This document shows, one piece after another, positions 3,521 to 46,990 of a stretch of 55,252 nt of DNA. The position numbers were made by a program, and so were the translations under genes. This stretch comes from Bacteroidales bacterium (GTDB lineage: Bacteria > Bacteroidota > Bacteroidia > Bacteroidales > VadinHA17), in the NCBI GenBank assembly GCA_003141415.1, contig PLLX01000162.1, positions 7,015-62,266 of the forward strand, in the 5' to 3' direction. Below the pieces are notes generated by a model that was not told where the DNA came from, did no database searches, and saw only the letters and a program-made list of their open reading frames with translations. Positions within the stretch are counted from its first letter, which is position 1. Each line of letters opens with the position of its first letter.

Positions 3521-4064
3521 CGGTGAAAGTACTGAAGAAGAGGAGATTGCCTTAAGAGTTTTTTTTCGAAAAGGCAATATTCCTGAGGGCTTTGACGCTG
3601 AAAAGGAAATTTTCAGTTATTATGCTGAATCTCAAGATGTACCTGAGCCATCCATTGACTTTGAAGCCAGGATACTGACAGGAATTGACGCATCAGAAAG
3701 AGAAAGGGGATCACAAAATATCAGAAGGTACCTCATTCCAATCCTGAGTGCAGCAGCCGGGATACTCATACTTACAGGATCTTATTTCTTCTTTATGAAA
3801 AGAGCTGAATCAGTGGACACATTCGCCGATCCTGCAATTGCTTACGCAGAAACAATAAAAATACTAAGGGATGTTTCATCTCAACTGAATCATAGCGCAC
3901 AGGTTCTGGAACCGGTTGGTAAAATGAGCGAGTTTACAAGGAAAAGTTTTAAATCGATAAATAAATCTACCGGAATAGTTGAGAAGAATCTGAAGAACCT
4001 TGATTATCTTCAAAGAGCAATTGACTTATCTCATGTTCCTTCTGATAAAAATATAAACAAATAA
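3477..4064 (+). CDS. Putative membrane anti-sigma factor
   Basis: LIEKYYNGESTEEEE N-terminus, one TM helix, overlaps the sigma gene. Confidence 0.75.
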   Translation: MSEEELKRLIEKYYNGESTEEEEIALRVFFRKGNIPEGFDAEKEIFSYYAESQDVPEPSIDFEARILTGIDASERERGSQNIRRYLIPILSAAAGILILTGSYFFFMKRAESVDTFADPAIAYAETIKILRDVSSQLNHSAQVLEPVGKMSEFTRKSFKSINKSTGIVEKNLKNLDYLQRAIDLSHVPSDKNINK

Positions 4065-23796: not shown

Positions 23797-23947
23797 ATTT
23801 TTATTAATTTTAAATTCATAAACCTATCAGTATTAGCAATTTAATGAACAGTGAAATGATTTTTTCATGTCATTTCATTTGCATAAATTGTGTGAAATGA
23901 AAATTCTTTTAATTTTATTAAAATATTTGCTTCTGAAATTATTAAGC

Positions 23948-24025
23948 ACCCCCTTCCCAACCTTCCCTCACGGGGGAAGGAGTGAATCATTTCCCCCTTG
24001 GCGGGAAAAAGAAAGGGGGTAAAAA
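23948..24025. repeat. Intact REP-like repeat homologous to the copy split at 44.1/45.9 kb
   Basis: Reverse complement TTTTTACCCCCTTTC...CAAGGGGGAAATGAT...CCCGTGAGGGAAGGTTGGGAAGGGG matches 44073-44100 plus 45903-46002. Confidence 0.75.
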
Positions 24026-42755: not shown

Positions 42756-44051
42756 CTATACAGGCTTCCCATACAAATCAAATTCAGTTGATTTTGTCAT
42801 AAGGATGTTATAAAAACTACCTGGTTTCAGATTATGTTCAGCTGCAATGAGTATCTCCTGATCAACCTCCGGGCTATCGAACTCAGTTCTCCCAACAAAA
42901 TACTCACCTTCTTTTCTATCAATAATAACTTTGAATACCTTGCCAACATAAGACTCATTTAATTCTGCCGAAATATTCTGCTGTATCTCCATCAGTTCGG
43001 CAACTCTTGATTCTTTAATATCTTCCGGAATTTCATCTTTATACTCTTTATATGAGTAGGTATCCTCCTCATGTGAATATGCAAAGACACCCAGTCTGTC
43101 AAATCTGAAGTCAGTAATAAATTTTTTCAACTCAAGAAAATCCTTTTCAGATTCTCCGGGATGCCCGGCAATGAGAGTTGTTCTGATAACTGCATCAGGG
43201 ATCTCATTACGAAGTGTATTTAGTATTGCTATTGTTTCTTTCCTGTTATGAGATCTTTTCATTATACCCAACATATCATCAGTTATGTGTTGAATCGGAA
43301 TATCAATATACCGGCAAATCCTGGAGTTATCCAGGATTAAAGGAATCAGCTCCAGGGGAAAATTAGCAGGATACAGATAATGTAGTCTGATCCATTCAAG
43401 TGATTCGATTTTTAATAATTCAGTGACCAGTTCAGCCAATGCTTGTTTCCGATAAAGATCGAGTCCATAATAACTCAGATCCTGTGCTATCAGAATTAAT
43501 TCTTTGACACCATTTGAGGCCAACTGCGATGCTTCTTTTACAAGCTCCTCAACTGGTCTTGATATATATTTGCCACGGATAAACGGAATTACACAGAAAG
43601 CACATGTACGATCACAGCCTTCGGATATTTTGAGATATGCATAATGGCCGGGACCGGTAAGTGTTCTGTCGTTCAGAAGATCATCTCGTAAATTTAATCC
43701 CAGTTCATTTAAGACATCACTCATGTTATTTACCCCGAAATACTTTCTTACTTCAGGTATTTCATGTTTGAGTGCATCGGTGTATCGCTCAGAAAGGCAG
43801 CCCATTACATATAAGTTATCAATTTGACCTGACTTTTGAGCTTTAACAAACCGAAGAATAGTATCCACACTCTCTTCCTTTGCGTCATTAATAAAGCCAC
43901 ATGTATTAATAATAACGGTACCTGCACGGAAATCATCCGAATTGTAAAAGACTTCGAAGCCTCCGGCATTAAGCTGTTTCAGAAGCTTTTCCGAATCTAC
44001 AACGTTTTTAGAGCACCCGAGTGTGACAATATTTATTTTCTTGGAATTCAT
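42756..44051 (-). CDS. rimO: Ribosomal protein S12 methylthiotransferase
   Basis: LGCSKN.VDSE, NTCGFI, radical SAM CDRTCAFC and C-terminal TRAM (SPEVD). Confidence 0.97.
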   Translation of the reverse strand: MNSKKINIVTLGCSKNVVDSEKLLKQLNAGGFEVFYNSDDFRAGTVIINTCGFINDAKEESVDTILRFVKAQKSGQIDNLYVMGCLSERYTDALKHEIPEVRKYFGVNNMSDVLNELGLNLRDDLLNDRTLTGPGHYAYLKISEGCDRTCAFCVIPFIRGKYISRPVEELVKEASQLASNGVKELILIAQDLSYYGLDLYRKQALAELVTELLKIESLEWIRLHYLYPANFPLELIPLILDNSRICRYIDIPIQHITDDMLGIMKRSHNRKETIAILNTLRNEIPDAVIRTTLIAGHPGESEKDFLELKKFITDFRFDRLGVFAYSHEEDTYSYKEYKDEIPEDIKESRVAELMEIQQNISAELNESYVGKVFKVIIDRKEGEYFVGRTEFDSPEVDQEILIAAEHNLKPGSFYNILMTKSTEFDLYGKPV

Positions 44052-44286
44052 GTGAGCAATTCTATTTTTGAATTTTTACCCCCTTTCCTGTTTCCCCCTT
44101 TATTTGTGCCACCTGACAACTATAGGATTGGGATAAGTTCTTTGACATATATTGAAGATTTTAAGATTGATGTACCTTTAACTGTTTGGTGGACGAAGGG
44201 AGGGCGTAGCCCGACAGCAGTCCACCAAACAGTTAAGAATATCACGCATATATTTATTTTTTCGATGCAATTTAAATTATTAAGTC

Positions 44287-45078
44287 ATGATTAACAACTC
44301 ATCCGTCTTTAAATGGGATCGGCTTAAACAGAAGCAATTGGATACTCAATTTGTAAATATTCTGATGCAAGGCATGAATTGCTCTCAGTTTGAAGCAAAA
44401 GCTATAATTAATCAGGTTTATGAGGTATATCAACCTTTTTTTGATAATGCTTCAGCCATGAAGCCTGGACAAATGCTTTTTGAGGTAGTTGCCATCGAAA
44501 ACAGTCCCAGGAAAAAACTTTCTGAATGCACAATGCTTTCGGTCATTATTACTCTTGATGCCGGAGCCGAAGATCTAACCATAAAACAAGAACAAGGTGT
44601 TATCGGCTTACGGCATCATCGTTTACAGCGTGTGTGTTATGAAGCTTTTCAACAAGGAGGATTGCTTACGGTAGAAGATATTGCCCATCGCTTGCTAAAT
44701 TGTGGAGAACGAACTGTATGCCGGGACATTGAAGCGTTCAAAAAACAGGATATCATCTTGCCATTGCGCTCAACCGTAAAAGACATGGGGAAGTCAATTT
44801 CTCATCGTAGTCAAATTATAAAAGAGTGGTTACGTGGAAATGAATATTCCGAAATATCTCGTACAACCAATCATAGTATAGATGCCGTAGCGAACTACGT
44901 AGACAAATTTAAACGAATAGTTTGTTTGGCCAAGGACAACTACGAAATCCATACTATTGCTTTTATGGTTAAGTTATCTCCTTCGCTTACACAAGAGTAT
45001 TACAATCTATATGAAAGTGAAAAGATAGCCAGCCATCGAAAAGAAGAGTTGAACGATTTAACTAAAAAAAACAATTAA
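44287..45078 (+). CDS. DUF1670-like protein A
   Basis: KPGQ, EAFQQGGLLT.EDIA, DMG...SH and NHS..AV.NY motifs. Confidence 0.8.
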   Translation: MINNSSVFKWDRLKQKQLDTQFVNILMQGMNCSQFEAKAIINQVYEVYQPFFDNASAMKPGQMLFEVVAIENSPRKKLSECTMLSVIITLDAGAEDLTIKQEQGVIGLRHHRLQRVCYEAFQQGGLLTVEDIAHRLLNCGERTVCRDIEAFKKQDIILPLRSTVKDMGKSISHRSQIIKEWLRGNEYSEISRTTNHSIDAVANYVDKFKRIVCLAKDNYEIHTIAFMVKLSPSLTQEYYNLYESEKIASHRKEELNDLTKKNN

Positions 45079-45104
45079 TCAATCAAAAAAACACAGAACA
45101 CCAA

Positions 45105-45861
45105 ATGATACGAAAACCTGACGGTATCCGCAAATATAGCACAGCTCATGATCGTTTTCTTCAACCTGCCATAGTAAACTTTCTTACCCGCGAGTTCTCT
45201 GGTATGTTTGGTCCAATGGTTCGCAAAAATATTGCCAACGAACTAGTAACTCTTTTTAATGAGCTTTGCCCTGAAACAACACGATTAAAGCCCGGGCAAA
45301 TTATCTGGAATGCTTTGGATAAGTACTCGTGCAGACTCCCCAAACCGAAAATACAAACCTGTAATACTTACTCTGATTAATGAGGATGACATTGTTCTTT
45401 TTGAAAAACAGATTACACCAAATAAAATCAAACAGCAAGTAATGGCAAGAATGATCAGGGAGACGTATGCACAGGGAGGTGCTCTATCCATGAGAGATCT
45501 AAGTTTGCTTCTTTTGACTAATTCTTCTAGCTTATCAGGCTTGAGAACTCAATATGAACAAGAACATAAAACTGTTTTACCACATACGGGTGTATTGCAT
45601 GATATGGGCTCTACAATAACACATAAAGTACAAATAGTACTTAAACACGTTGTTGACAAAAAAGCACCAAATATTGTTGCCCGTGAAACTAACCATTCTC
45701 AAAGAGCTGTTGATCATTATCTTAGAGATTACCACCGAGTTAAAACATTACACAATGATAACAAAGATGTTGACTACATTCACACAACAACAAACATATC
45801 CAAAACAGTTATTAATCAGTATCTTAAAATCATCAACCAATATGTCAAAGAACCCTGTTAA
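45105..45861 (+). pseudogene. DUF1670-like protein B, frameshifted near 45324
   Basis: KPGQIIWNALDK in ORF 45105 continues as TRADSPN...ETYAQGGALS...HDMG...TH...NHS..AV.HY in ORF 45310. Confidence 0.75.
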
Positions 45862-46033
45862 TAATTTAATAAATTTACCCTTGTTTTGTCAGGTGACATT
45901 ATCAAGGGGGAAATGATAATTCCTCACCTTTTCCCTGGAATGTTTTGTAGACGAAGAATATTTTCAACTCCTTCTCCCGTGAGGGAAGGTTGGGAAGGGG
46001 GTTAAAAAATTAGAGAAGTCAAATAACCAACAA

Positions 46034-46990
46034 TTATTTCTCACTGAAAAGCGAATCGACAAAATCAATCCGGTTAAATAAAAGGAGGTCTTCAAGTTTC
46101 TCACCTATTCCTATATATTTAACGGGTATTTTGAATTGGTCAGAGATGCCGATTACCACTCCTCCTTTTGCCGTGCCATCAAGTTTTGTAATTGCCATTG
46201 CTGTTACATTTGTTGCTGCAGTGAACTGTTTAGCCTGCTCAAATGCATTTTGGCCTGTTGATCCATCCAGAACCAGGAGAACTTCATGTGGTGCTTCCGG
46301 GATGACTTTCTCCATAACCCTTTTTATCTTAGACAACTCTGTCATAAGATTTATTTTATTATGAAGTCGTCCTGCAGTATCAATTATAACAACATCTGTT
46401 TCCGTGGATACTGCTGATCTGAGTGTATCATATGCTACTGATGCCGGGTCTGATCCCATTTGTTGCTTTACAAGCGGAACTCCTACCCTGTCGGCCCAGA
46501 TCTGTAGTTGATCAATTGCTGCTGCCCTGAAAGTATCAGCTGCACCAATAAGGACTTTATTACCGGCTGATTTAAATTGATAAGCAAGCTTCGCAATAGT
46601 TGTTGTTTTACCTGCACCATTCACACCGACGACCATAATAACATAAGGAACATTTTTTAATGCCTGTGAAAAGTCTGAATCTGAACCGGTCTGATTTTTT
46701 TCCAGCAGAGCTACGATCTCTTCTTTCAGGATTGCATTCAGTTCGCTGGTATTTAGATATTTATCTCTGGCTACTCTGGCTTCGATACGTTCTATAATCC
46801 TTAGAGTTGTTTCTACACCTACATCAGAAGAGACGAGAACTTCTTCAAGGTTATCAAGGACTTCTTCATCAACTTTTGATTTCCCTGCAACAGCTCTGGA
46901 AAGCTTATGAAAAACGCTCTCCTTTGTTTTCTCGAGGCCCTTATTGAGGCTCTCCTTCTTATCCTTTCCAAGAAATCCCAGCAAAGCCAT
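46034..46990 (-). CDS. ftsY: SRP receptor GTPase
   Basis: GVNGAGKTTT, DTFRAAA, DTAGR and TKLDGTAKGG motifs. Confidence 0.98.
   Translation of the reverse strand: MALLGFLGKDKKESLNKGLEKTKESVFHKLSRAVAGKSKVDEEVLDNLEEVLVSSDVGVETTLRIIERIEARVARDKYLNTSELNAILKEEIVALLEKNQTGSDSDFSQALKNVPYVIMVVGVNGAGKTTTIAKLAYQFKSAGNKVLIGAADTFRAAAIDQLQIWADRVGVPLVKQQMGSDPASVAYDTLRSAVSTETDVVIIDTAGRLHNKINLMTELSKIKRVMEKVIPEAPHEVLLVLDGSTGQNAFEQAKQFTAATNVTAMAITKLDGTAKGGVVIGISDQFKIPVKYIGIGEKLEDLLLFNRIDFVDSLFSEK

Follow-up and report, generated by a model that had tools for sequence, protein, structure and literature searches.

A mobile 1.8-kb element with paired DUF1670 genes at a hairpin between rimO and ftsY of a Bacteroidales bacterium

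The interrupted gene run and its two DUF1670 genes

We analysed a stretch of 55,252 nucleotides from a Bacteroidales bacterium of the VadinHA17 group (contig PLLX01000162.1 of assembly GCA_003141415.1; hereafter the window), in which a plus-strand unit of 1.8 kb with two DUF1670 genes occupies positions 44099-45903. The unit splits a run of five minus-strand genes and sits between rimO and ftsY. Gene calls and Pfam matches identified the members of this run as L28 (PF00830), L33 (PF00471), a DUF4295 protein (PF14128), FtsY (SRP54 domains), and a RimO-type radical-SAM/TRAM protein. This agrees with a preliminary description made from the sequence alone, which had noted an antisense 1.8-kb unit interrupting an rpmB-rpmG-DUF4295-ftsY-rimO run. 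The interval from the rimO start (44051) to the ftsY stop (46034) measures 1982 nt and contains the two DUF1670 open reading frames (ORFs) on the plus strand.

The first of these, gene A (44287..45078, plus strand), is intact and encodes a protein of 263 aa that matched DUF1670 (PF07900) with 168.4 bits (E = 2e-49, cut-off 25 bits). Gene B (45105..45861, plus strand) is a DUF1670 paralogue whose reading frame is disrupted by the loss of 2 nt after 45323; in relatives with an intact gene, the product has 252 aa. Its upstream frame (45105-45380) scored 13.1 bits, below the PF07900 cut-off, and its downstream frame (45310-45861) scored 138 bits, while an intact B protein from a relative aligned along its entire length to DUF1670. 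The original assignment of both proteins to a DUF1670-like group was thus borne out, with scores above the cut-off for A and for the C-terminal part of B. The 2 nt after 45323 are missing in comparison to all five close relatives (88-99.8% identical). A contig from a separate run matched the window at this deletion, and two other runs had the 2 extra bases. Since an independent contig agrees with the window, gene B is truly frameshifted in this lineage.

Alignments A3 and A4 confirmed the motifs that had been listed as common to both proteins, i.e. KPGQ, E..QGG.L...D, DMG....(S/T)H, and NHS..AV..Y. Over 75 family members (26-95% identity), H196 was invariant, and R12, K16, G61, T89, D96, R109, R115, Q123, E130, D131, T143, D147, R161, G168, H173, Y204, F208, and S231 were conserved in at least 90% of the sequences. 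The median ratio of nonsynonymous to synonymous substitution rates (dN/dS) was 0.047 for A (26 usable pairs) and 0.093 for B (28 usable pairs) among 9 loci, indicating strong purifying selection.

Mobility of the unit and its hairpin target

The unit is embedded in a host repeat resembling repetitive extragenic palindromic (REP) DNA. The left half of the repeat (44073..44098) and the right half (45904..46025) have no assigned strand; the C-run at 44094-44098 forms the 5' arm of a target hairpin, and the loop AA with the adjoining G-run (45906-45910) forms the 3' arm. An uninterrupted paralogue of the repeat (G000:C204:9502-9579) reads ...TTTCCTGTTTCCCCC then AAGGGGGAAATGAT..., so that AAGGGGG follows the C-run without a gap. 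As this paralogue joins the C-run to the loop and the G-run, the insert comprises 44099-45903 (1805 bp, plus strand), with no duplicated bases. Limits of 44099-45902 had been proposed before; the left one held, while the right one was one base short of the true end at 45903. Parts of the host repeat were found at 8 further places in the window's own genome, and the repeat occurs at many positions in genomes of the same genus. A second copy is located at approximately 23924-23983 of the window (G000:C197:30938-30997). The layout of the repeat is that of a compound palindrome, with C-run/G-run hairpins and then ..CTCCTTCNCCCGTGAGGGAAG..GGGAAGGGGG, and it is this palindrome that serves as the landing site of the element.

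An empty site of this very locus was present in a public soil metagenome (run X13), in which a contig of 1304 nt links window positions 43953-44087 to 45903-46300 with nine letters between them and without the element (shorter side 135 nt). The same run also contains the element in other flanks. Likewise, the ftsY-rimO spacer had a length of 0-190 nt and carried no such insert in 11 of the 11 nearest same-genus genomes examined. Near-identical copies were found elsewhere: three copies in unrelated flanks are present on one Acidobacteriota chromosome (99.9% identity over 1781 bp), and two in another genome (99.7% identity over 1792 bp). By our own count, the longest contig was shorter than 3 kb in 103 of the 120 best protein clusters; such a limitation to short contigs is the signature of a collapsed repeat, the form in which a repeated element assembles. 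The view that this is a mobile element, put forward in the preliminary description together with the suggestion to look for empty-site alleles, therefore gained support from the empty allele, from near-identical multi-copy elements with sharp ends, and from the conserved termini described below; no larger carrier transposon was found around the element. A discrete unit, conserved ends, several copies in different flanks, and empty sites are general properties of an insertion sequence (IS), and the unit shows each of these. On the strength of these sequence comparisons, we concluded that the unit of 1.75-1.8 kb is mobile in its entirety and that precise empty sites exist.

That the unit is immobile, a conserved host operon that happens to have REP flanks, would accord with the single copy in the window's own genome. 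The empty-site allele, the empty orthologous sites, the identical copies in other flanks, and the patchy distribution all speak against it, and we regard such an operon as exceedingly improbable.

Some further observations concern the arrangement of individual copies. The three Acidobacteriota copies (L053, L055, and L056) are located at approximately 6.60, 6.82, and 6.86 Mb of a 6.89-Mb chromosome, on the same strand and within about 260 kb, which suggests local hopping or a regional or strand preference. Locus L116 shares its right flank with L120 and L122 and differs from them in the left flank, and only the left flank of L120 pairs with the right one, suggesting a rearrangement or deletion beside one copy. 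In run X10, compared over window positions 43700-46300, the contigs with the rimO and ftsY flanks had a depth of about 183-200, whereas the element was on a contig of depth 30 with different flanks. Most cells of the related strain in this sample probably lack the insertion at this site; the joints in X10 have short sides of 22 and 26 nt and were not relied on. No element match was obtained among PLSDB plasmids or INPHARED phages, and none of 44 pattern hits in IMG/VR was confirmed. Circle junctions, in which the left flank equals the right end, were seen in 0 of 98 distinct left flanks, although contigs cannot exclude rare forms.

Insertion takes place in a fixed orientation at a GC-rich hairpin of the REP-like or terminator-like kind, on the 5' side of its loop. 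For the 98 distinct left flanks, the last base is C in 96 and the last two are CC in 93. In 60 of the 64 flank pairs that were long enough to test, the two sides could form a stem of 4 bp or more; stems of at least 6 bp occurred in 40 of the 64, compared to a mean of 15.7 and a maximum of 23 when partners were permuted (200 permutations). As a rule, the right side of the element has 2-4 unpaired bases and the left side has none, and long perfect stems occur, such as those of 24 bp in L046 and L086. The arms vary with the host (CCCCC/GGGGG, GCGCC/GGCGC, or CCCTCTCC/GGAGAGGG), and the constants are the shape and the C before the cut. No direct repeat indicative of a target-site duplication was found at the 64 flank pairs, and the empty paralogue and the empty allele both join the C-run to the loop and G-run. 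A C precedes the left junction (..CC^T..) and also closes the right tip (..TTAAC^). Judged from these junctions, the element enters in one orientation and without duplication, with its left end directly after a C (usually CC) that borders the hairpin loop on the 5' side. Twelve loci offered 2 kb or more of flank on either side; GC skew was positive at 6 of them and negative at the other 6, these flanks being too short to reveal a replication-strand bias.

Ends, internal hairpin, and occurrence of the family

The two ends of the unit form inverted repeat arms of 28 nt (44092-44119 and 45886-45913) with 75% complementarity. The outer 7 nt of these arms, i.e. the left C-run and the right G-run, belong to the host palindrome and lie outside the element. 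Within the element, the left end (44099..44118, plus strand) consists of an 8-nt tip, TTTATTTG, followed by a palindrome-like site of 12 bp, TGCCACCTGACA (44107-44118), and the right end (45887..45903, plus strand) of a 12-bp palindrome, TGTCAGGTGACA (45887-45898), followed by the 5-nt tip TTATC. The TG...CA inverted repeats noticed earlier do exist, but they are not the termini: the 12-bp palindromes are located 8 nt inside the left end and 5 nt inside the right end. From 52 distinct left ends, the consensus TATATTTG TGCCAtnTGgCA was derived, with a palindrome of the form TGCCA-NN-TGGCA, and the columns of the left end are invariant in alignment A2. At the right end the consensus is a palindrome TGYCA-NN-TGRCA, then TTA(A/T/C)C. 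In a second clade, the left end reads TATGATTGTGCAA..ATGGC and the right end ..TTGC.TAAACT. We examined 118 loci and found the left end in 101 and both ends in 81, the latter matching the boundaries assigned in the window. The recurrence of the same end sequences at 101 left ends in 118 loci makes the ends of the window copy more than a chance occurrence, and provides the end repeats that the preliminary description had proposed to seek at other DUF1670 tandem loci. Element length over the loci had a median of 1758 bp and a range of 1725-1929 bp, the longest value being a contig-end match.

Between the left end and gene A, two non-coding features are conserved. A block at 44137..44170 (plus strand; GTTCTTTGACATA...), located between the left end and the hairpin described next, is kept across Bacteroidales-type loci and may be the promoter of gene A, although it was not called by a sigma-70 scan, which was uninformative (9 sites versus 7.3 expected, 0 terminators). 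The second feature is a hairpin at 44177..44237 (plus strand) with a perfect stem of 17 bp (44178-44194/44220-44236) and an apex of GNA x GNA internal loops and a C-GTA-G triloop; among the loci it is positioned approximately 75-130 nt from the left end, upstream of gene A. Covariation was counted for the three-helix structure on 63 distinct copies aligned without gaps and compared with 500 shuffles. Pairing was found in 96.3% of cells versus 74.5% in the shuffles and 34-47% with partners slid, 17 of the 18 pairs had changes on both sides, and no observed measure was equalled in any of the 500 shuffles. The basal stem is freely variable, and the apex is kept in both clades as two 3x3 internal loops (GNA on both sides), short covarying G-C helices, and a GTA triloop that is closed by C-G in 61 of 63 copies. 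Watson-Crick pairs accounted for 1041 of 1071 stem cells, with 8 G-T and 8 A-C combinations. Such near-pure Watson-Crick stems carry no RNA wobble signature, and hence no strand bias can be read from the stems. The GNA loops make sense solely on the plus strand. The hairpin may act either as RNA or as single-stranded DNA.

Neither the hairpin nor the rest of the element had an Rfam match near any gathering score. A reading of the apex as a single-strand origin was rejected: measured against the CS-6 motif TAGCGT of ssoA plasmids, the common apex ..GGCGTAGCC.. lacks TAGCG(T/A), and TAGCGA occurs in a minority variant only. Compared by eye, neither the apex nor the left non-coding region covaried with the target arms in the manner of a guide RNA. 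In three loci (L031 at 3914-3976, L094 at 2430-2480, and L095 in the same region), the apex is inverted between the stem arms at the DNA level, over about 25 nt. This inversion could represent a switch or a by-product of template switching at a palindrome. An RNA run (X19) yielded contigs that are 90-95% identical to parts of the element, which cannot show transcription. One of them (record 23), derived from a relative, begins after adapter-like letters at the equivalent of window position 44196, inside the apex; it is no evidence of a transcript end.

DUF1670 genes were present in 7 of 61 related genomes, the window's own included, in every case as a pair of neighbouring matches. When one genome per species was scanned, 37 DUF1670 loci were obtained; a full A-type ORF was followed by a full B-type ORF in 30 of these, and the other 7 were cut by a contig end or degraded. 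Hosts were mostly Bacteroidales, in addition to an Acidobacteriota chromosome and an Acidimicrobiia contig. A metagenome scan gave 596 pattern matches, of which 429 were confirmed as relatives, the best 80 of these being used; many of the metagenome relatives are stand-alone contigs of approximately 1.8-2.3 kb. In an archaeal class, DUF1670 was found in 8 of 81 genomes, mostly paired. Divergent as these archaeal pairs are, the A-like gene came first and the B-like gene second in 6 of 6, and inverted repeats containing GACA-N-TGTC palindromes flank the pairs. The two pairs of one archaeal genome are not copies of each other. In a representative library of 1.84 billion proteins, the family comprised 1131 clusters at 50% identity (E<=1e-3), and the names derived from NCBI for its members are 'DUF1670 domain-containing protein' or 'hypothetical protein'. 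Fused proteins occur with two units (P0200 and P0251; 532 and 544 aa) or three units (P0165, P0169, P0178, and P0183; 930-952 aa), and contain DUF1670 and helix-turn-helix (HTH) families and nothing else.

Further contigs are labelled Proteobacteria, Thiobacillaceae, Bacillales, Ignavibacteriaceae, and Methanomicrobiales, although such labels are unreliable on contigs of metagenome-assembled genomes below 2 kb (1.8-1.9 kb), a caveat that counts against the main interpretation given below. A proteins were 79-89% identical across Acidobacteriota and contigs labelled Proteobacteria, Bacillales, and Methanomicrobiales. Near-identical elements on contigs of 1.8-2.3 kb labelled Ignavibacteriaceae (L030), Methanomicrobiales (L054), and Bacillales (L057) reflect either recent transfer across phyla and domains or a mis-binned repeat contig.

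The DUF1670 pair as candidate machinery

Beyond A and B, the element has no space for a gene. The two are invariably there and in order, are conserved, and in some cases are fused, and the end palindromes are of a type expected for dimers. We therefore took A/B as the element's own machinery. On balance, we lean towards the view that 44099-45903 is an autonomous IS-like element of an undescribed family in which the A and B paralogues jointly provide mobility. To a similar degree, we favour A/B being necessary and, apart from general host functions, sufficient for it.

A different possibility is that the unit is a passenger moved in trans by an unlinked conventional transposase, with A/B as cargo, e.g. 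regulators. The unit contains no transposase-like domain, and its copy number is low (1-4 per genome), an observation which suits such cargo and tells against an autonomous element. Against cargo, intact copies all carry both genes in the same order and under strong purifying selection. In addition, no gene-less miniature derivatives were seen in 101 genomes of the genus; the left-end motif was present in 22 of them, with at most 4 per genome, compared to 3 hits for a reversed-pattern control. The end palindromes suit dimeric HTH proteins. Despite a spread over Bacteria and Archaea, no partner gene was noticed beside the element in the flanks read, which were not systematically annotated. We consider passenger status improbable.

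Further objections to A/B as the machinery, and in particular as its catalysts, come from the proteins themselves. Pfam at E<=1 returned DUF1670 and HTH families alone and no catalytic domain, NCBIfam gave nothing above cut-off and has no model for the family, and the best match in a sequence search of the PDB had an E-value of 0.49. An AlphaFold2 model of A was obtained with a predicted local distance difference test (pLDDT) score of 90.5 and a predicted template-modelling (pTM) score of 0.58. The N-terminal part of this confident model contains three helices, a beta-hairpin, and one long helix; two HTH modules come next, with a flexible, DMG-bearing loop between them. Foldseek with this model produced 0 hits at E<=1e-3 in PDB and BFVD; weak matches were to HTH regulators, resolvase HTH domains, Trp repressor, and HU/IHF, and a protein atlas returned HTH clusters only, with scores of at most 0.81. 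In the second predicted HTH of the model, H196 occupies the turn and Y204 belongs to the recognition helix. The N-terminal domain folded alone reached a mediocre pLDDT of 71 and matched HU/IHF-like folds only (E 0.4-1.9), which we treat as a lead. Finally, prediction of an A+B complex gave 0.48 versus 0.00 for the best control (partner pLDDT at least 72, contact agreement at least 69%), a pass that the tool grades as weak support. Of 80 solved complexes, 58 reach the mark, as do 2 of 110 mismatched pairs, and passing scores of at most 0.60 belong to just 7 of the 80 solved complexes and to both passing mismatches.

No member of the known recombinase classes was recognized either. Pfam and Foldseek agreed with the earlier statement that DDE, DEDD, HUH, and serine-recombinase motifs are missing: a DDE/RNase H fold was found neither as a Pfam family at E<=1 nor in the Foldseek lists, a RuvC-like DEDD domain with the C-terminal Tnp domain of IS110/IS1111 by neither method, and for Y1 HUH proteins there was no PF01797-type hit at E<=1 and no such fold in the Foldseek lists. 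An RST motif in A was discarded as a serine-recombinase signature, as the Ser is not conserved in B or the family consensus and PF00239 gave no hit; the weak Foldseek matches to resolvases were confined to their HTH portion. The H-x7-Y tail had been likened to box II of tyrosine recombinases, with a plain HTH as the other option. The AlphaFold2 model supports the HTH. Membership in the tyrosine recombinases was rejected, as hhalign of alignment A1 against nine tyrosine-recombinase domains of the same genome gave a probability of 1.5% (E 0.034), PF00589 had no hit, and the motif is part of the predicted HTH. A single hhalign alignment sets H173, H196, and Y204 under the H, H, and Y of box II; it has no significance and is a weak lead.

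The preliminary description had gone on to propose that DUF1670 pairs form a heteromeric transposase of a new IS-like family. The new family stands on strong evidence. The heteromer is indirectly indicated by the constant order of A before B, natural fusions, and the weak pass of the complex prediction, and a catalytic role would be one for which no catalytic fold or motif was found. That A/B themselves are the catalysts is a proposition to which we give somewhat less than even credence.

Its main rival assigns the chemistry to the host: A/B would be DNA-binding specificity or architectural factors that mark the ends and the hairpin, and a ubiquitous host enzyme would cut and join. Candidates are a Xer-type tyrosine recombinase, a REP-associated Y1 nuclease, a topoisomerase, or a replication-fork activity, as in elements that exploit XerCD. 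Every recognizable module of A/B is an HTH or possibly an HU/IHF-like fold and none is a nuclease or recombinase, the targets are REP-like hairpins of the host, and the host genome has 19 PF00589 matches, all of which fits this explanation. On the other hand, the element ends are unlike host REPs and stay conserved while target sequences differ between phyla, and A/B possess many invariant polar residues, more than an HTH fold needs. Near-identical elements also occur in very different phyla, and the 79-89% identity of the A proteins across these groups argues against dependence on a lineage-specific host enzyme. We consider recruitment of a host enzyme rather unlikely.

Recombination on folded hairpins is an established principle, exemplified by integron integrases and by XerCD with CTX phage. 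For the present element, three features taken together, namely the lack of a duplication, the constant C at both the left junction and the right tip, and the hairpin target, suggest that the reaction takes place on folded single strands or extruded cruciforms. If A/B are the machinery, an A/B heteromer would use its HTH domains to bind the 12-bp palindromes, which lie 8 nt from the left end and 5 nt from the right, and would recognize the folded target, as a single-stranded-DNA hairpin or a cruciform. It would then perform or directly direct strand cleavage after C at both junctions, followed by strand rejoining. The plus-strand hairpin with the GNA apex upstream of gene A might act as a cis-acting cofactor or regulatory site. 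The window copy would represent a recent insertion that later lost gene B by the 2-nt deletion and could be moved only with B supplied in trans. In its boldest form, which we offer as a doubtful but consequential option, A/B would constitute a new class of strand transferases, made of HTH modules and a small N-terminal alpha/beta domain, that transposes the 1.8-kb element via folded single-stranded DNA. Cleavage of one strand would follow the C of the left junction and that of the right tip, any GC-rich hairpin loop at a replication fork would serve as target, and the GNA hairpin would be an essential cis cofactor, e.g. for complementary-strand priming or synapsis. If true, this would be a new transposase chemistry common to Bacteria and Archaea.

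In its behaviour, the element resembles IS200/IS605, IS110/IS1111, or integron attC recombination; membership in these groups fails on protein features. Tyrosine-recombinase transposons of the Tn554 type have tandem paralogous recombinases and insert in an oriented manner without duplication. The element likewise encodes tandem paralogues and inserts oriented and without duplication, and its R..K..H(R)..H..Y order is loosely like that of box II. In contrast to tyrosine recombinases, there is no PF00589 hit, the hhalign probability is the low value given above, none occurs among the Foldseek hits, and H-x7-Y lies in a standard HTH. IS1397 and ISKpn1, DDE elements of the IS3 family, insert into REP loops and generate duplications of 3-4 bp. 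A REP palindrome loop is also the target of our element, which differs in having neither a DDE fold nor a duplication.

IS110/IS1111 elements, the subject of bioRxiv 10.1101/2024.04.26.591405, use a DEDD recombinase with a bridge or 'seeker' RNA. The likeness extends to sequence- or structure-specific insertion, often into REP-type palindromes, without duplication and in fixed orientation, to a sizeable structured non-coding region beside the recombinase gene, and to the sub-terminal repeats of IS1111. The element differs in having no DEDD/RuvC-like or IS110 C-terminal domain and two HTH paralogues instead of one recombinase. Its hairpin apex is conserved while targets vary, with no covariation by eye and no Rfam match, and its stems are nearly devoid of G-U pairs (8 of 1071 cells). 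IS200/IS605 and the REP-associated Y1 transposases (RAYTs), the subject of two accounts (PMC3333891, PMC6006769), have several features in common with the element: no duplication, a left end that abuts a short conserved motif (here C or CC), a precise empty site, small palindromes inside both ends, and an association with hairpin-forming REP DNA. With CC before 93 of 98 left ends and sub-terminal palindromes of 12 nt, the element behaves in the IS200/IS605 manner, a resemblance that is behavioural only. Unlike these elements, it has no HUH/Y1 domain or HUH motif, its terminal palindromes are just 12 nt long, its proteins are multi-HTH with about 260 aa each, and no strand bias has been demonstrated.

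A full-text literature search, which did not extend to supplements and subscription journals, retrieved no description of DUF1670/PF07900, and the accessible part of the literature on REP-targeting insertion sequences and on elements without known transposase contained none of this element. Within this scope, and leaving ISfinder aside, the family appears to be undescribed, as had been suggested at the outset, and the absence of an NCBIfam model agrees with this. A new IS-like family built on DUF1670 pairs is thus well supported. As a kind, the insertion sequence is familiar; what is new is the family and its machinery, which matches no established class of transposase.

Prokaryotic transposable elements are classified by a few chemistries, namely DDE, DEDD, HUH, tyrosine, serine, and Cas1. 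The element is widespread in Bacteria and Archaea, yet encodes none of these. If the DUF1670 pair is the catalyst, it would represent a new enzyme class and provide a function for a Pfam family of unknown role; if it merely recruits a host enzyme, it would represent a new way of parasitising hairpin DNA. Either way, this is a small inserter that recognizes structure, chooses hairpins between genes, and does not duplicate its target. As IS finders at present miss it, the element is relevant to genome annotation, and it may be of use as a tool.

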